Below, piece by piece: positions 24,794-36,691 of a DNA stretch of 64,000 nt. The stretch spans positions 1,856,001 to 1,920,000 of the forward strand of contig JASGHJ010000002.1 of assembly GCA_047602405.1 (NCBI GenBank), written 5' to 3'. A program made the position numbers and the translations under genes. The notes below the pieces were generated by a model. It made no database searches and was not told the origin of the DNA. It saw only the letters and a list, made by a program, of their open reading frames with translations. The stretch is from Anaeromyxobacteraceae bacterium. GTDB lineage: Bacteria; Myxococcota; Myxococcia; Myxococcales; Anaeromyxobacteraceae. The stretch's first letter is position 1. The number at the start of each line of letters is the position of its first letter.

Positions 24794-26078
24794 ATGGCCT
24801 TCCCCCGTGGCGCACCCCGCTTCGCCTCCTCGCTCCTCCTCGCCGCCGCCCTCGCGGGCTGCGGGAGCTCGAACGACAACAAGGGCAGCTCCGGACCCGA
24901 TCTCTGCGCGGGCGTCTCCGGCGCTTGCCTCGGGTTCGCCGCCGGCACGAGCGCCGCGTCGATCCGCGACAGGATGGCGACCGCCTCGGCGGGCACGACC
25001 TTCGTGTTCGACACCGGCACCTTCAAGTTCGACCTGCCGCTCGAGGTCACCGTCGCGAACGCGACGATCCGCGGCGCCGGCCGCGACGCGACGCTCCTCG
25101 ACTTCAAGGGCGCCTCCGGCTCCGAGGGCGTGTTCGCCACCGGCGACGGCTTCACCCTGAAGGACCTCGCGATCCGGGACACCGCGGGGAACGGCGTGAA
25201 GATCGTCGGCGCCGACAAGGTGACCCTCCGGAACGTGAAGGTGACCTGGACCGACCCGGACGGCACGAAGCACGGCGGCTACGGCATCTACCCCGTGCAG
25301 TCGTCGCACGTCCTCGTGGAGAACTGCTTCACCTCGGGCGCCACCGACACCGGCATCTACGTCGGCCAGTCGCAGGACATCATCGTCCGAAACAACGAGA
25401 CCACCGGCAACGTCGCCGGCATCGAGATCGAGAACAGCTACCGCGCCGACGTGCACGGCAACGACTCGCACGGCAACACCGGCGGGATCCTGGTGTTCGA
25501 CCTGCCCGGGCTCCAGCAGCAGGGCGGCAACCACGTGCGCGTGTACGAGAACACCGTCTCGTCGAACAACACCGGCAACTTCGGGCCCGCGGGGAGCACC
25601 GTCGCCCTCGTGCCGGCCGGCGCCGGCATCGTCGTGATGGCGAACCACGACGTCGAGATCTTCTCGAACACCGTGAGCGGCAACCAGACCGCGGCCATCT
25701 CGGTCATCAGCTACGCCATCACCGGGCTCACCATCCCCGACGGCTACGACCCGTTCCCGAAGAACGTGTACATCCACGACAACACGCTCTCGAACAACGG
25801 GACCAGCCCCGACTCGAGCGTCGATCCTCGGCGGGCTGCTCGCCCTCCTCCAGGCGACCGCGCTCGATCACAACCCCATCCCCGACGTCGTGTGGGACGG
25901 CATCCTGAGCCCCGCCGACACCGGCACGAACCCGCGCGGCCTCTGCGTGAAGGCCCCGGCGACCTTCTTCTCGCTCGGCGCCACCTTCACCGCGGGCGGC
26001 CCCGAGTTCCACCCGTCGGTCGACGCCACCGACCACCGCTGCACCCAGACGGCCCTGCCGGCCGTCACGGCGTGGTGA
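24794..26078 (+). CDS. Parallel beta-helix lipoprotein (apparent +1 insertion at ~25826)
   Basis: Lipobox ALAG-C; beta-helix repeats YGIYPV, TGIYVGQS, AGIEIENS, GGILVFDLP. Continues into ORF 25890..26078. Confidence 0.85.
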
Positions 26079-27184
26079 CCCGCGCCCTCACGGCGGCGAC
26101 GCTCCTCTCGCTCCTCTCGCTCCTCGCGGCCTGCGGCGGCGGCAAGTCCGGCGCCGCCTGCACGCCGCCCGGGGCCGGGTTCGATCCGGAGCACCCGCCG
26201 GAGCTGCTCTCGTCGCTGTGCCTGCTCGAGCCCTCGCCCGGCGCGGTGAGGCCGCGCCCGGGGGTCGTGCCCTACGATCTCAACACGCCGCTCTTCTCGG
26301 ACTACGCCCAGAAGACGCGGGCGATTCGGTTCCCTCCCGGCGCCGGCGCGGCCTACACGGCGTCGGGGCCGCTCGACCTGCCGGTGGGCACCATCGTCGC
26401 GAAGACCTTCGCGCTCGCGCCGGACCAGCGGACGCCCGCCGCGGGCCGCAGGCTCGTCGAGACCCGGCTCCTCGTGCGCACCGCGACCGGCTGGCGCGGC
26501 TACCCGTACGTCTGGAACGACGCCGGCGACGACGCCGTCTTCACGCCCGGGGGGCGCGTCCTGACGTACCCGATGACGACGCCGTCGGGCGCGAAGGTGA
26601 CCTCGAGCTACCTCATCCCGAGCCTCACCCAGTGCGCGCGGTGCCACGCCGACGACACGAGCGGGCCGCTGCACCTCATCGGCCCCACCGCGGCCAACCT
26701 GAACCGGGACCTCACCTACCCCGACGGCACGAGCGCGAACCAGCTCGCGCGCTGGGCCGCGGACGGCCACCTCACCGGCGCCCCGGCGCCGGCCGCCGCC
26801 CCGCGGCTCGCCGCCGCCCACGACCCCGCGAGCGGGACGATCGACGCGCGCGCCCGGGCCTGGCTGCACGTCAACTGCGCCTTCTGCCACAACGACACCG
26901 GCCTCGCGCGCACCTCGGGCCTGCACCTCGGCGTCGACGTGACGGACCCCTACGTCCTCGGGGTGTGCAAGCCTCCCGTGGCCGCCGGCCCCGGCTCCGG
27001 CGGGCGCCACTTCGACCTCGTGCCCGGCCAGCCGGACGCGTCGATCCTGGTGTACCGGCTCGAGGCGACCGACCCCGCCGCGGTGATGCCGCAGGTCGGC
27101 CGGAGCGTCGTGGACGAGGAGGACGTGCAGCTGCTCCGGGACTGGGTCACCGGGCTCGCCGGAGGCCCCTGCCCCTCACCCTGA
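26075..27184 (+). CDS. SO2930-family diheme c-type cytochrome lipoprotein
   Basis: Lipobox LAAC; PYDLNTPLFSDYAQK, PVGTIVAKTF, VETRLL; heme motifs CARCH and CAFCH; MP distal ligand; GTGA overlap with the upstream gene. Confidence 0.88.
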   Translation: MTRALTAATLLSLLSLLAACGGGKSGAACTPPGAGFDPEHPPELLSSLCLLEPSPGAVRPRPGVVPYDLNTPLFSDYAQKTRAIRFPPGAGAAYTASGPLDLPVGTIVAKTFALAPDQRTPAAGRRLVETRLLVRTATGWRGYPYVWNDAGDDAVFTPGGRVLTYPMTTPSGAKVTSSYLIPSLTQCARCHADDTSGPLHLIGPTAANLNRDLTYPDGTSANQLARWAADGHLTGAPAPAAAPRLAAAHDPASGTIDARARAWLHVNCAFCHNDTGLARTSGLHLGVDVTDPYVLGVCKPPVAAGPGSGGRHFDLVPGQPDASILVYRLEATDPAAVMPQVGRSVVDEEDVQLLRDWVTGLAGGPCPSP

Positions 27185-29107: not shown

Positions 29108-29422
29108 ATCAGGGCCCCTCGCCCCCTCGGGCGACGCCCGGGGTCGCCCGGGGTCCGCACGCAGGGTTTGCGGCGTGTCGCCACGGATGACCCAGGGTGA
29201 GTCACCGCCCATGGCACCCGGTTCTGGCAGGCCGCCCGCGGGCCGGGTGGGTGATCGCCGCACACGCACGGAGGCCCCCGGACTCACGGGGTTTCACGGA
29301 ATGTGGCGATCCGCCTCTGGTCGTCGACTGGACTGATGGTCATACGGCACGCATCGTGGAAAGACCCGCGACGGGTGCCGGAGGTCGTCGACCGCTCCGA
29401 GCCACCGCCGAGGGACTCGCCG

Positions 29423-31987
29423 ATGACGCTCAAGGTCCGACTGCTCCTCCTCTGCGCCATCTTCGCCGCTGGCCTCGCCATCGTCTCCGCGATCGCGCTC
29501 CGCACGGTCGCGGTCGTGCGGGTGAACGGCCCCTTCTACGAGCGGATCGTCACCGGGAAGGCGCTGCTCTCCGACGTCCGGGTCCCGGCGCTCACCGGCG
29601 CCGAGGCGCTGCTCGTCGCGCAGCAGCTCGCCGACGAGACCGACGAGGACGCGATCGAGAAGCTCGCGGCCCGCGCGACCGAGGCGCACAAGCGTTTCGA
29701 CGAGACCGCGGCGAGCTGGGCGAACCGGCTCGACGCCGACGAGAAGGCCAGGGTCGAGGAGCTCGAGAAGAAGGCCATGCCCTTCTTCCACACCCTCCAG
29801 AACGAGCTCCTCCCCGCCACCCGCAGCGGCAAGATCCAGGCGACGCAGGCGGCGCTCGACCGGACCCGCAAGGCCTACGCCGACTTCTCGGCGTACGGCG
29901 CCGAGGTCGTCCAGTTCCTCGATCAGCGGCAGCGCGAGCACGAGGCGGCCGCAGCCGCGGCCGTGGTGCAGGGCAACTGGGTGCTCGGCCTCGCGATCCT
30001 CGCCGTCCTGCTGTCGGGTAGCGCCTTCGCCTACGGCGTCATCCAGCGCATCGGGCGGTCGGTGGGCGGGCTCGTCGACCAGACGCACCGGCTCACCGAG
30101 GCGGTGGCCGAGGGCGATCTCACGCTGCGCGCGGACCCCGCCGCGGTCGATCCCGAGTTCCGGCCCATGGTCGCCGGCGTCAACGAGACCGTGGACGCGC
30201 TCGTCCGCCCCCTCGAGGTGACCGCCGGGTACGTCGAGCGCATCAGCCAGGGCGACGTGCCGCCCCCGGTGACGGAGGACTGGCACGGCGACTTCGACCA
30301 GGTGAAGCAGAACCTCAACCGCTGCATCGCCGCGGTGAACGCCCTCGTCGACGACGCGGGCCACCTCGCCGAGGCCGGGGCGGCCGGACAGCTCCAGGCA
30401 CGCGCCGACGCCTCGCGGCACCAGGGCTCGTTCCGCCGCGTGGTCGAGGGCGTGAACGCCACGCTCGACGCCGTGGTCCGCCCGGTGCGCGACGCCGCCG
30501 AGCGGGTCGAGCGCCTCTCCCGCGGCGAGATCCCCGAGGACATCCGCGATGCGTGGGCCGGCGACCTCTCCCGGCTCAAGGACGCCCTCAACCGCTGCTT
30601 CGCGTCGGTCCGCGCCCTCTCCGAGGACGCCCGCCGGCTCGCGACCGCCGGCGCCGAGGGCCGGCTCGACGTCCGCGCCGACGGCACCCGCCACGCGGGC
30701 GACTTCCGGGCCATCGTCGAGGGCGTCAACGCCACGCTCGACGCCGTCGTCGGCCCGCTCCGCGAGGCCGCCGCCGCCATCGAGGCGCTCTCGAAGGGCG
30801 AGGCGAGGAAGGGCGTCGGCGTCGCCTGGAAGGGCGAGTTCGTCACGCTGCGCGCGGCGCTCGAGCGCTCGACGGCGGCGGTGGGCGGCCTCGTGCAGGA
30901 CGCCTCCGCGGTCGCCCGCGGCGCCGCGGCCGGCCAGCTCTCCCTGCGCGCCGACGCGGCCCGGCACCTGGGCGAGTTCCGCGCCATCGTCGAGCAGCTC
31001 AACAAGACGCTCGACGCCGTGGGGGCCCCCGCCGCCGCCACCGCGCACGCGCTCGAGCGGCTCGCCCGCCGCGACATGACCGCGCGGGTGGACGGCGCCT
31101 ACGAGGGCGATCACGCCCGCACGCAGGTCGCGCTGGACGAGGCGGCGAGCGCGCTGCAGGAGGCCCTCCTGCAGGTGCGGACCGCGGTGAGCCAGGTCGC
31201 GAACGCGGCCGTCCAGATCGCCTCGACGGCCCAGTCCGTCTCGCAGGGCGCGACCACCCAGGCGGCCTCGCTCGAGCGGACCACCTCCGACCTCGGGGCG
31301 CTCGCCGGCGGCACGCGCGAGGCGGCCGACCAGGCGAAGGCGGCGGACGGGCTCGTGCGCGAGGCGGCCGGCGCCGCCCGCACCGGCGCGGTCGCGGTGG
31401 AGCGCATGGGCGAGTCGATGCAGCGGATCCGCCAGAGCGCCGAGAGCACCTCGGCGATCATCAAGGACATCAACGAGATCGCCTTCCAGACGAACCTGCT
31501 CGCCCTCAACGCCGCGGTCGAGGCCGCGCGCGCGGGCGACGCGGGCCGCGGCTTCGCGGTGGTCGCCGAGGAGGTCCGGGCGCTCGCGATGCGGTCGAAG
31601 GAGGCCGCGCAGAAGACCGAGGCGCTCATCCACCAGTCGGTCGAGCAGTCGATGAAGGGCGAGCAGGCCGCGAAGGACGTCTCCGCGCGGCTCGCCGACA
31701 TCGTCCGCGCGGTCGACGGCTCCACCGAGCGCGTCGGGCGCATCACGACCCTCATGGGCGACCAGGTCCGGCGCGCCGACGGCCTCTCCGCCACCATGGG
31801 CGAGGTCGACAAGGTCACGCAGCAGAACGCCGCGAGCGCCGAGGAGGCGTCCGCCGCGGCCGAGGAGCTCTCCGCCCAGGCCCAGGAGCTCGAGGGGCTG
31901 GTCGGGAGGTTCGAGCTCGGCGACGGGGCCGCCCCCGCGGGCGCCGCGCCGCGGCGTCGCCTCGCCTCACGCCGGGAGCTCTCATGA
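29423..31987 (+). CDS. Methyl-accepting chemotaxis protein with periplasmic helical sensor and eight HAMP-like units
   Basis: Two TM helices, alternating RAD...VEGVNATLD and G..P....GDF...K.NLN repeats, [20 protein letters not shown]...[10 protein letters not shown]. Confidence 0.95.
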
Positions 31988-32409
31988 GCCGCCTCGCCTT
32001 CCTGCCCGCGCTCCTCGTCCTCGCCGCCTGCGGGAAGCCGGACGTCGGCCCGCACACCGGCGGGGGCGGCGGCGCGACCGCCGCGACCTACGCGAGCATC
32101 ACCACCGGCCTCATGGTCCCGCGCTGCGCCACCGGCGCCTGCCACGGCGGCTCGAGCCCGGTCGCCTTCCCGCCCTGCGACGCCAATCGCTGGTACGCCG
32201 CGATGGTCGACGTGGAGTCGCAGCAGGCCCCCGGCGTGAAGCTCATCGCCCCGGGCGACCCCGACTCGAGCTACCTCGTCCACAAGCTCCGCGGAACGCA
32301 CGCCCTGGTGGGCGGCGGCGGAGCACGCATGCCCATCGCGGACGCCGCGCTCGACGACGCCGAGCAGGCCGCGGTGGAAGCCTGGATCGCCAACGGAGCC
32401 ACCCGATGA
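31984..32409 (+). CDS. Small lipoprotein c-type cytochrome with atypical CX4CH motif
   Basis: Lipobox LAA-C; CATGACH at 32125-32145; PGDPDSSYL and RMP...AWI..GA resemble planctomycete-type cytochrome c domains; ATGA overlaps at both ends. Confidence 0.75.
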
Positions 32410-33545
32410 GCCACCTGCGCACGCACCCCTGGGCCCGTACCCTCCCCCTCGCCGCCGCGCTCGCGGCGCTCCTCGCCGCCGGCGCCGCCCGCGCCGGGTC
32501 CTCCACCACCGTCTCCGGCTCGGTCTACGTGGACGAGTGGTGGATGAACCGCCCGGACGTCCAGAAGCGCTCGCCGGGCGGCGTGACCATCGACGGCGCG
32601 GTGAAGATCGGCGTCGACATCTCCGACGACGTCGCGTTCTCCACGAAGGCGTGCATGAGCTGCCACGGCATCGAGCTCGAGCACTTCCAGATGGAGTACA
32701 TGCCGAAGACCTGGTTCAACGTGCAGGCGGGCCGCCTCGCCATCCCGTTCGGCGAGTTCGCGAACCGGGTGGACCAGTCCGGGCACAAGACGGTCTCGGC
32801 CCCGCTCATCTACGACATGGGCCGGATGGCGTACGGCGAGAAGGGCGCGATGAACCTCGGCGTCCTCCCCCTGCCGTACACCGACACCGGCGTGATGGTG
32901 TACGGGCAGCGCTTCCTCGGGCCGATCCAGGCCTGGTACGGCGTCTACGGCGTGGCGGGCCTCCGCGGCGGCAACGACGCGGACTGGACCGCGATGCGCG
33001 CGCTCTACTACACCGATCCGAACCGCGTCCCCTCGGTGGGCGGCCGCCTCGCGCTCACGCTGGCCGCGCAGCCGGGCCGGTTCCTCGGCGACACCTCGGT
33101 CGGCGGGTCCTGGACGCGGGGCCGCTACGACCGCGACGCGGTCCTCGGCTACGAGATCTGGGGCATCGACGCCTCCATGCAGCTCGGCAAGCTCGTCGTG
33201 CGCGGCGAGTACGCGCACCGCCGCACCGACCTCTCCACCAAGGCGAGCTACCCCTACACGCTCGTGGATCCCTGGTTCACGAAGGAAGGGTTCTACGTGG
33301 AGGCCGAGGCGCCGCTGGGCGGCAGCCTCGGCGTCGTCTACCGCTACGACGAGCTGGGCCGCCACGGCGTCCCGCTGCCCGGCTCGACCGGGCTGTCGAC
33401 CAACTCTCACATCCTCCGGCACACCGCCGGAATTCTGTACACCCCGGCGCCGTCCACCTTCCTGAAGCTCGGGTGGGAGTACTGGATGGCGTCCGATTAC
33501 ACCGACTTCCACTCGGTCCACCTCGGAGTCGGAGGAGCGTTCTGA
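32406..33545 (+). CDS. Outer-membrane beta-barrel (porin-like) containing a CxxCH motif
   Basis: Signal peptide ending ARA, amphipathic Tyr/Trp-rich strands, porin-like AGRLAIPFG, C-terminal Phe (HLGVGGAF); CMSCH at 32652-32666. Confidence 0.8.
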   Translation: MSHLRTHPWARTLPLAAALAALLAAGAARAGSSTTVSGSVYVDEWWMNRPDVQKRSPGGVTIDGAVKIGVDISDDVAFSTKACMSCHGIELEHFQMEYMPKTWFNVQAGRLAIPFGEFANRVDQSGHKTVSAPLIYDMGRMAYGEKGAMNLGVLPLPYTDTGVMVYGQRFLGPIQAWYGVYGVAGLRGGNDADWTAMRALYYTDPNRVPSVGGRLALTLAAQPGRFLGDTSVGGSWTRGRYDRDAVLGYEIWGIDASMQLGKLVVRGEYAHRRTDLSTKASYPYTLVDPWFTKEGFYVEAEAPLGGSLGVVYRYDELGRHGVPLPGSTGLSTNSHILRHTAGILYTPAPSTFLKLGWEYWMASDYTDFHSVHLGVGGAF

Positions 33546-33872
33546 TGTCCACCCTCACGTTCGTCGCCGTCGCAGCCCTGAAGCTCACCCTCGCCCAGAT
33601 CCGCCGCCGGCACCGACGCCCGCGACAACGGGCCCGGCACCATCGACGTCGCGAGCTGGCCCGCGGAGCAGAAGGCCCGCTACCCGCTCTTCCAGCAGAA
33701 GTGCGCGAAGTGCCACGCCCTCGCACGCTCCGTGAACTCGAAGTTCTCGGCCGCCGAGTGGAAGCGCTACATGAAGCGGATGGTCCGCCGCCCGAACGCG
33801 GGCGTCACCGACGAGCAGGCCGAGGACATCTTCGAGTTCCTCAAGTACTACGCCTCGAAGCAGGGGCTCTAG
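33545..33872 (+). CDS. Secreted monoheme cytochrome c, copy 1 (frameshift after the signal peptide, ~33598)
   Basis: MSTLTFVAVAALKLTLA, then in a shifted frame DARDNGPGTIDVASWPAEQKARYPLFQQKCAKCH...WKRYMKRMVRRP...IFEFLKYY. Absent from the ORF track. Confidence 0.8.
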
Positions 33873-33894
33873 CCGCAGGACCGGGAGCTTCACC

Positions 33895-34219
33895 ATGACC
33901 ACCCTCGCCCTCGTGGCCGCCGCCGCGCTGCAGCTTCTCCTCCGGCCAGGACGCCGGCTCGGATGCCCGCGACGCCGGCCCCGACAAGATCGACGTCTCG
34001 GGCTACCCCGCCGAGCAGAAGGCCAACTACGAGCTCTTCCGCCAGAAGTGCTCGAAGTGCCACAGCGCGGCGCGGGCGGTGAACTCCAGGTTCTCCGCGG
34101 TCGAGTGGAAGCGCTACATCAAGCGGATGGTGCGGCGCCCCAACGCGGGCGTCACCGAGGAGCAGTCGGACGCCATCTTCGAGTTCCTGAAGTTCTACAG
34201 CACGAAGCTCGGCCTGTAG
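33895..34219 (+). CDS. Secreted monoheme cytochrome c, copy 2 (frameshift after the signal peptide, ~33937)
   Basis: MTTLALVAAAALQL, then in a shifted frame DARDAGPDKIDVSGYPAEQKANYELFRQKCSKCH...WKRYIKRMVRRP...IFEFLKFY. Clear paralog of copy 1. Confidence 0.8.
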
Positions 34220-34244
34220 CTCGAGGCCGGGCCGAGGGACCACC

Positions 34245-36691
34245 ATGCCCCGCCCGACGACGCTCGCCACCACCCTCGCCGCCCTCGCCGCCGCCGCGCT
34301 CGCCTGCTCGAAGCCGGGGGTCGGCGCGAAGGTGGAGAAGGTCGTGCCCGACACGACCGTGAAGACCCACGCGGTCGCGCTCACCGGCGCGACCGTGGAC
34401 GCCGCGAGCCGGAAGGTCGTGGTGGACTTCACGCTGACGTACGGCGGCACGCCGGTGGCCCTCGCGGACCTCGCGACGCTGAAGCCGACGTTCACGCTCG
34501 CCGAGCTCACGGTGGATCCGGAGAGCGGGCTCCCCTCCTGGAAGAGCGCGCTCCTCACCGGCTCCCAGACCGCCACGTCGAACCCGATCGGCGGTCCCGG
34601 GACCCGCGACGAGAACGTCCTCAAGGGCCTGAAGCAGCCCGGCTCGGAGGCGACCGGCACCGCCGAGGCGCTCGCCGCGGGGGGCTTCCGCTACACCTTC
34701 GCGAACGCCCTCGCCGACGGCTACGACGCGACCCACACCTGGCGCGTCGGCGTCTGGCTGAACGGCGTCTCCGCGGGCACCCACGCGACCTGCACCACGC
34801 TCGACTTCGTCCCGGCCGGCGGCGCGGCCGCGCCCCGTGACCTCGTCGCCGACGCCGACTGCCAGCGGTGCCACACCCAGGTGCTCGCCCACGGGCGGCG
34901 CGTCGGCGTGCAGCTCTGCACGACCTGCCACACGTGGCAGGCGGTCGACCCCGACACCGTCGATCCGGCGGCGCCGCTCGCCGCGACCCCCGCCACGAAC
35001 CCCAACCCCCTCGACTTCGGCCGCCTGGTCCACCGCATCCACCGCGGGAAGAACCTGCCGACCCTCTACACCGCCTCGAGCGCCGCCCCCGCCCCGGCCC
35101 TCGGCTCGGCCGCCATCGCCGCCCCCTTCGCGCCGGGCCGGAACGCCGCGGTCCCCGGCCGGAAGTTCTCGATCGTCGGCTACAACAGCACGGTCATGAC
35201 GTTCGGGCAAATCCTCGAGTGGACCTCGCCCGACGGGACGACGGTGTCGAAGCGGGCCGTCGCCGGGGGCGTGGGGTTCCCGCGCGACTACCGCGACTGC
35301 GACGCCTGCCACGCGAAGGCCGCGCAGGGCGCCCGGATCCACACCGAGGTCTCGCGCCGCACCTGCGCGGGCTGCCACCCGGACGTGTGGTTCGCGACGG
35401 CGACCCCGCCCGACACCGCGCACCTCGCCCACCCGGGCGGCGTGCAGGCCGACGACACCGCCTGCGCCGGCTGCCACGTGGCCCCCGGCTCGCCGAAGCT
35501 CTACGTCGACTCGAGGGACGTGCACACGCCGGTGGCGGACCACGAGCGGTTCAGCGCGATCACGGCCTCGATCGTGTCGGTCTCCGGGCTCCTCCCCGGC
35601 GGCTTCCCGACGGTCGTGTTCACGCTCTCCGACCGCACCGGGCCCATCTCCCCATCAACGACGCGACGACCGCGCCGCCCGTCGACTCGGCCGCGAAGCC
35701 GAGCCCGGTCGCCCGCAAGGTCACCCGCCTCGCGTTCGTCCTCTCCGGCCCGACCTCGCCCGACCGCCTCACCTCGAACGTGCCCCTCTCCGAGCCGGTC
35801 ACCGACAAGCTCGTCGCCGACGAGCAGGGCCGCTTCACCTACACCTTCAAGACCGCGAAGCTCCCCGCCGCCGCCACCGGCGCCTGGACCGTGATGCTCG
35901 AGGCCCGCCGCCAGCTCGCGGCGCCCTCGAAGTTCTACGATCTCGCGACCGACACGCTCGTCTGGCCCTACACCGGCGAGGGCATCACCGAGTACGCGAA
36001 CAACGCGATGGTGGACGTCGCCGTGGACCTCGGCGACACCTCGAAGCCGGCGCTCGCGCGCCGCGCGGTGGTGGACGTCCAGAAGTGCAACGCCTGCCAC
36101 AAGACGCTGCTCCTCCACGGCGGCAACCGCTCGGGCGTCGAGAGCTGCCCGATGTGCCACACGCCGGACCAGACCGACTGGGCCCAGCGGCCCAAGCTCG
36201 CGAGCGGGAACGTGCTCCTCGCCGGGACCCTCGACGGCATCGAGGAGCGCTCGGTCCACTTCAAGACCATGGTCCACCGCATCCACACCGGCGGCCGCAA
36301 GGGCATCGCCCAGCTCGACGCGGAGCCGTTCGTCATCTACGGCTTCGGCAAGAACCCGCTCTTCTTCGACGAGGCCGTGTTCCCGAACGACCTCGCGAAC
36401 TGCCGCGTCTGCCACCTCGGCGAGTCCTTCCGCCTCGAGGCAATCCCGGTGGACGCCGCGCCGACGGTGGCGAACGAGACCGCCTCGCTCGTCCACAAGA
36501 ACACCGCGGCGCACGGGTCGGACGCGAAGGTCCGCCCGATGCAGGCCGCCTGCACCTCCTGCCACGACACCGGCACGGCGCACGACCACGCCAACCGGAA
36601 CACCGTGAACGGGGTGGAGGCCTGCGTCTCCTGCCACGGCGAGTCGGCGCAGTACTCGCTCTACGGGCTGCACGGGGTCGAGAGGCCGTAG
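34245..36691 (+). CDS. OmcA/MtrC-family decaheme c-type cytochrome lipoprotein (apparent 1-nt deletion at ~35651)
   Basis: Lipobox ALA-C. Hemes CQRCH, CTTCH, CDACH, CAGCH, CAGCH, then a beta-rich spacer, then CNACH, CPMCH, CRVCH, CTSCH, CVSCH (5+5). LVHRIH and MVHRIH motifs are typical of the family. Confidence 0.9.

Follow-up and report, generated by a model that had tools for sequence, protein, structure and literature searches.

Described outer-membrane conduits and the locus

To our knowledge, the conduits that carry electrons across the bacterial outer membrane take one of two forms, either a large barrel threaded by a multiheme cytochrome (MtrAB, Pcc) or Cyc2 with its N-terminal heme domain. 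The locus discussed here lies in a window of 64,000 nucleotides from the genome of an Anaeromyxobacteraceae bacterium (assembly GCA_047602405.1, contig JASGHJ010000002.1, positions 1,856,001 to 1,920,000 of the forward strand; the genome is called G000, and relative genomes, loci and proteins carry G, L and P numbers). In it, five genes, A to E, encode a predicted porin with a heme motif of its own (B), three small monoheme cytochromes (A, C and D) and a decaheme lipoprotein (E). In the most probable of the readings considered, the barrel, with a predicted heme in its pore, a periplasmic monoheme cytochrome and the CX4CH lipoprotein might together carry electrons through the outer membrane as a minimal three-heme conduit, to which the MtrC-like decaheme would be an optional addition at the surface; this is advanced tentatively, with somewhat less than even confidence. 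The five co-oriented genes, their motifs and their tight packing (ATGA at 32406, TGATG at 33543, gaps of 22 and 25 nt) are all found as reported in a first-pass annotation made from the sequence alone:

Gene A, 31984..32409, + strand: lipoprotein monoheme cytochrome c with lipobox LAAC, the CX4CH motif CATGACH at 32125-32145, a predicted distal Met at 32329 and a PSCyt1-like fold
Gene B, 32406..33545, + strand: predicted 16-strand OprO/P-like porin of 379 aa with CMSCH at 32652-32666, a C-terminal Phe and a predicted distal Met in loop 3 (32817-32819)
Gene C, 33545..33872, + strand: small cytochrome c with one heme motif (CAKCH at 33702), predicted His/Met, behind a type I-like signal peptide
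Gene D, 33895..34219, + strand: monoheme paralogue of C, about 72% identical to it, with CSKCH at 34049
Gene E, 34245..36691, + strand: OmcA/MtrC-family decaheme lipoprotein with 5+5 CxxCH motifs and a lipobox, predicted bis-His

The likeness of this locus to MtrCAB of Shewanella and to MtoAB/PioAB lies in the OmcA/MtrC-family protein and in the presence of a porin and cytochromes in one cluster, but it has neither a 26-strand MtrB nor a decaheme MtrA above cut-off. The first-pass annotation noted the absence of MtrB from the locus; in the whole of G000 (98% complete), the TIGR03509 and PF11854 profiles find none either, although PF11854 does detect MtrB in one of five relatives, G022. As for MtrA/DmsE, G000 yields 13 partial matches, none of them above the TIGR03508 cut-off and none at the locus. 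The G022 gene (G022:C5:162397-164679, L230) is a true MtrB/PioB, and the fused MtrC-A module is encoded in G022 as well. Pcc (OmbB-OmaB-OmcB) is likewise a proposed trans-outer-membrane porin-cytochrome conduit and is described in the same genus (PMC4245776, accessible text); it combines a heme-free porin with a periplasmic wire of 8-14 hemes, whereas this locus has no periplasmic 8-14-heme cytochrome and carries monohemes beside the porin.

Like B, Cyc2 and Cyc572 are predicted to be 16-strand OprO/P-like barrels of about 380-480 aa, with one c-type heme, for which B has the motif (Keffer et al., 10.1101/228056, accessible text). However, the cytochrome domain of Cyc2 is separate and N-terminal, while in the model of B the CxxCH spans the last part of strand 3 and the turn that leads into strand 4, and the predicted sixth ligand of B is a Met in loop 3. 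The motif AxPxFAR[QK][TY] that precedes the CxxCH of Cyc2 (10.1101/228056, accessible text) occurs in none of 132 CxxCH-bearing sequences of the B family. B was rejected as a Cyc2 on the missing N-terminal heme domain and this missing motif, and as an MtrB on its 16 strands instead of 26, its own heme motif and the lack of an MtrB profile match. Among the papers searched, none was seen to describe the family to which B belongs.

The barrel and its predicted heme

The AlphaFold2 model of B, built without heme, is a 16-strand barrel (pLDDT 95.9, pTM 0.92). Its listed Foldseek matches are porins, the highest TM-scores among them being those to OprP (TMq 0.65) and OprO (0.64), yet identity to these two is only about 10%. 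Profile search returned no Pfam or NCBIfam match above cut-off for B, with no match at all to PF07396 and 17.5 bits for Porin_4, under the cut-off of 27. Among the atlas neighbours of B, Porin_O_P is found in 11-100% of members.

In the model, Cys46 (mature numbering, as for Cys49, His50 and Met101) closes strand 3, and Cys49-His50 form the turn into strand 4. Counting strands from an N-terminus taken as periplasmic suggests that the CxxCH sits toward the outer side, and a rough estimate from seven residues of tilted strand would place the heme attachment about 18 Å above the periplasmic rim. The motif occupies a single fixed position throughout the homologues. Cys46 shares its parity with the polar, lumen-facing residues 40, 42 and 44, residue 47 is mostly Tyr, Phe or Val, and Cys46 is predicted to face the lumen. 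Loop 3 of B is long (residues 76-121), and in porins of the OprO/P class this loop folds into the pore. Of the cluster representatives with CxxCH, 94 of 95 have Met101, which lies within this loop, as against one of the 13 without; since it tracks the motif in this way, the pore of B probably contains a His/Met heme, lodged in the lumen between the strand 3-4 hairpin and loop 3. Eleven of the 13 representatives without CxxCH have His102, most of them with a single-Cys motif at the hairpin, a pattern that suggests a bis-His heme in this variant. The single-Cys (CxxH) barrel, with a His in loop 3, is also found at L177 (352-12158) and L212 (1558-11413), where multiheme genes follow.

If B does bind its heme through the barrel wall and loop 3, it would represent a new structural class of outer-membrane cytochrome. 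Such proteins are annotated as hypothetical proteins or porins, and screens based on MtrB, OmbB or Cyc2 profiles, or on at least three hemes, would overlook B.

Conservation of the module and the place of the decaheme

The named relatives belong to Anaeromyxobacter and Anaeromyxobacteraceae. A single-protein search matched B in 26 of 36 congeners, and a profile matched 92 of 301 Myxococcota genomes, weak heme-less porins included, as well as 523 sequence clusters (50% identity). Of 40 loci compared, most of them from Anaeromyxobacteraceae, 39 were scored as having the CxxCH; A is the immediate upstream gene in 37 and C the immediate downstream gene in 38. Behind the misses are two contig ends, a barrel that is split, a locus whose C lies at a distance and another that has no C. 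In other families, 33 loci with a CxxCH barrel were inspected, and a cytochrome of the C family is present in 32 of them and an A-like gene in 21, while none of six heme-less porin loci has C. Moreover, 36 of 150 representatives among distant homologues, some of them from Planctomycetota, carry a domain resembling C fused N-terminally to the barrel, and one such fusion is modelled with a pTM of 0.86 over 470 aa, above what the share of the barrel alone would give; we read this as a defined placement of the fused C domain on the barrel. Because of this adjacency across families and of the C-barrel fusions, the core, judged from gene content, is B with C, usually accompanied by A. In proteins P0234, P0263, P0252 and P0195, a single chain joins two or three monoheme domains to the N-terminal side of the heme-motif barrel, and the module is carried by cultured Anaeromyxobacter strains (L078, L082, L084, L085 and L090). 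The idea, already put forward in the first-pass annotation, of electrons crossing through a small heme-motif barrel with monoheme partners is borne out in so far as these proteins form a conserved module, the passage of electrons itself being a proposal.

In A, C19, C24, H25 and M87 are invariant in 53 aligned sequences; among solved structures, the family profile matches FoxE best (E 4e-7), and distant relatives match PF07635. A differs from PSCyt1/FoxE and from its own relatives, which use CxCH or CxxCH, in its CX4CH motif. In C, C30, C33, H34, W49 and M56 are invariant in 64 sequences, and the profile matches the structures of PscC/cytochrome c (cytochrome c551), the heme domain of QHNDH and SorB (E 1e-6 to 5e-4), to which C and D are alike in this respect, although the A, C and D proteins of the window fall below the cut-offs of the SorB, PscC, QHNDH, PSCyt1 and FoxE-type families. 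Two copies of C in tandem occur in only one of 40 related loci, and D is, on sequence comparison, a lineage-specific duplication of C.

The assignment of E to the MtrC-like decahemes, made in the first-pass annotation, is supported by the intact orthologue, which scores 317 bits on TIGR03507 (cut-off 209). PF22113 is found in both halves of the window gene, its PDB matches are MtrF and OmcA only, and it has 13 conserved His outside the motifs and no conserved Met. Identity of E to the remaining MtrC-like genes in G000 is only about 26%, as against 42-54% to those at barrel loci elsewhere. Over the 40 loci, it is fused in frame to A in 12, divergent in five, downstream in four, otherwise upstream in three (one of these an extra fusion) and unseen in 16. 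In 15 open reading frames (ORFs) from 13 loci, A is joined 35-37 residues after heme 10 of the decaheme, so that the partner domain is attached to MtrC at its heme-10 end, whereas MtrA meets MtrC near heme 5. In 21 of the 22 genomes that have B as well as an E orthologue, the two lie side by side. The E-A fusion and this adjacency point to A and B as the partners of E.

The view of the five genes as one conserved unit did not survive the comparison: MtrC is present at 21 of 28 fully flanked Anaeromyxobacteraceae loci and missing at seven, and none was seen at the 33 CxxCH-barrel loci of other families. Where it is absent, its slot often holds a PF09459-like protein, a pentaheme cytochrome or a predicted redox protein of no known family, and the best reading of these gene arrangements would make the MtrC-like decaheme an optional surface module. 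Two examples of an ethylbenzene-dehydrogenase-gamma-like (PF09459) protein in the MtrC slot upstream of A are L090:5120-6472 and L156:5161-6411. Farther afield, L177, from a distant family (G063), has the barrel, A, MtrC (248 bits) and C in a different order, and L212, a metagenome contig, has the barrel, a 6-heme cytochrome, A and C. Both lie directly downstream of a quinone-oxidoreductase-like operon with 5-heme, molybdopterin-oxidoreductase-like, 4Fe-4S and NrfD genes, and these arrangements are candidates for a complete quinone-to-surface chain.

Proposed electron route and alternative readings

In the proposed conduit, Cys46, Cys49 and His50 at the outer end of strand 3 would hold the heme, with Met101 as its sixth ligand; C or D would dock at the periplasmic mouth of B and A at its outer mouth, and E would contact A through its heme-10 end. 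Electrons from an external donor (Fe(II), reduced humics or an electrode) could then pass through E, A, the porin heme and C/D to periplasmic high-potential acceptors. His/Met hemes usually have a higher potential than bis-His hemes, and since A, B and C are predicted to be His/Met and E bis-His, the inward direction would be downhill and is considered likely, with potentials taken from ligand type only. According to a table in a review (PMC5743827), A. dehalogenans can draw electrons from a cathode. For Anaeromyxobacter, a genus common in soil, such a conduit would offer a testable route of electron uptake; it also suggests that other myxobacteria and planctomycetes may have an electrical link to surfaces that was not suspected before, and it would be very small, which matters for engineering.

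Several observations weigh against this proposal. A single heme would have to bridge the membrane in B, whose model was built without heme; the redox potentials are deduced from ligand type only. The MtrC-A fusion is confined to one clade and therefore counts as one event. E orthologues occur without a barrel match in five genomes, two of them (G009 and G032) with both flanks seen, and B occurs without an E orthologue in four, although several of these unpaired genomes are incomplete. In P0195, a domain weakly resembling A (E 5e-5) lies on the N-terminal side of the barrel, a position that would put this domain in the periplasm. Many carriers of the module belong to myxobacterial families that are not known as metal respirers. 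Genes for signal transducers neighbour the module in the same orientation no less often than MtrC does, a Pcc-like pair or porin exists in 36 of 36 congeners and adjoins the decaheme in G013, and three of the five genes are frameshifted in this assembly.

The frameshifts affect C, D and E (-2 near 33600, +1 at 33935 and -1 near 35650) by comparison with the 96%-identical relative G010, in which all five genes are intact and E has 815 aa and 10 CxxCH motifs. The state of G010 at 33597, 33935 and 35650 was found in four of four runs (contigs from four studies). Non-triplet indels in G000 affect 15 of 68 ORFs that are intact in G010 across the genome; for six unrelated stretches the figure is 11 of 55, at 0.19 per kb. 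Sequencing or assembly error is the likely cause, because about one fifth of the genes of this assembly carry such indels, although three in 4.7 kb, where about 0.9 would be expected (Poisson P of about 0.06), is rather high, and decay in this strain may be the alternative cause.

Among the other explanations, the one that survives best takes the heme-porin, A and C as a trans-envelope redox sensor for an inner-membrane transducer (SiaABC-like proteins, a methyl-accepting chemotaxis protein (MCP) or a Ser/Thr kinase), by which the redox state of the surface or medium would control attachment, motility or development; the wire would be the same and its output a signal. This explanation is unlikely, though it deserves serious attention. 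In 30 of the 36 loci whose sequence extends 3 kb downstream, the gene directly after C encodes a SiaA-like phosphatase (dCache-HAMP-SpoIIE), and SiaB-like genes are found at 25 of the 28 fully flanked loci, as against 21 for MtrC. G000 itself has no match to SiaABC-like genes at E 1e-6; L074, L075 and L112, of a clade without them, have an MCP gene directly upstream, as does the window:

MCP gene, 29303..31987, + strand: methyl-accepting chemotaxis protein with Pfam MCPsignal and HAMP_2 domains

Its stop overlaps the start of A (ATGA at 31984), and the MCP is a possible signal output of the module. In other families, a Ser/Thr kinase is co-oriented within 5.5 kb at 17 of 33 loci, and stands between B and C at five. 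Against this, myxobacterial genomes are rich in signalling genes, no cytochrome-binding domain is known for any of the three types of transducer, and L177 and L212 have respiratory neighbours instead. These are plain counts, uncorrected for a background rate, over relatives that are non-independent, for which reason the transducer neighbourhood may be taken as a strong lead and not as a result. The conduit and sensing readings can coexist. The SiaABC-like partner-switch genes directly after C are exemplified by L093:2411-5187, with 29 similar loci.

A combination of both, that of a third outer-membrane architecture, goes further. In it, a wall- and loop-ligated heme and a three-heme His/Met wire would take plug-in modules (MtrC-like, ethylbenzene-dehydrogenase-gamma-like or pentaheme), would be spread Myxococcota-wide and fused in Planctomycetota, and would import electrons and feed a co-encoded chemoreceptor, phosphatase switch or kinase for electrical sensing of surfaces. 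As a whole, this picture is speculative and is held with low confidence.

Alternatively, B could act in the manner of Cyc2, with a small redox-active solute oxidised or reduced at the lumen heme after entry into the pore and with A, C, D and the decaheme as periplasmic carriers or a capacitor, which is improbable. In its favour are the barrel class shared with Cyc2 (10.1101/228056, accessible text), FoxE as the best PDB match of the A-family profile, the fusion of A-like and C-like domains with the barrel in P0195 and the complete absence of A from 12 of the 33 loci outside Anaeromyxobacter. However, the Cyc2 motif is absent from all tested sequences, and the predicted six-coordinate His/Met heme leaves no open site, while the Cyc2 models have a single axial His (PMC13741234, accessible text). 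OmcA/MtrC proteins are, furthermore, located at the surface where they have been studied, as established for Shewanella.

The first-pass annotation had also raised the question of other conduits in the genome that could serve E, and the answer is divided: no MtrB was found, but a Pcc-like pair, consisting of a porin (split by a frameshift) and a 346-aa cytochrome with 12 CxxCH motifs, is encoded at G000:C2:236266-238776 (L114) and could serve the decaheme, while fusion and adjacency favour A and B. The pair resembles the two-gene Anaeromyxobacter pcc clusters described as lacking an outer-membrane cytochrome (PMC4245776, accessible text). That it serves E for outward Fe(III)/Mn(IV) reduction, with the adjacency reflecting co-regulation and the heme-porin doing a separate job, agrees with the standalone E orthologues and with the further MtrC-like genes that G000 holds far from any barrel match, but is distinctly doubtful given that one large clade has E and A as a fusion and that E stays beside B through at least three gene orders and recurs with the barrel, A and C in a distant family.

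These further MtrC-like genes comprise four OmcA/MtrC-like genes in tandem at G000:C1:319469-332234, with no barrel seen alongside, and others at C1:420.9-423.3 kb and C2:640-641 kb. At L200:8129-11923, an MtrC-like decaheme is divergent from a 409-aa protein that ends in Phe, has no Pfam or barrel-profile match and is possibly another small barrel. At G000:C2:1843358-1850923 (L115), an ORF bearing 36 CxxCH motifs precedes a gene of 549 aa without a Pfam match, and other ORFs with 26-30 hemes are at C1:1.815 Mb, C2:1.159 Mb and C2:2.077-2.097 Mb. Finally, at 24794-27184 of the window, the genes for a parallel beta-helix protein (TIGR03805) and for a diheme cytochrome of the SO2930 family (TIGR03806) appear as one ORF, merged by a frameshift near 25825; they are two genes in G010.

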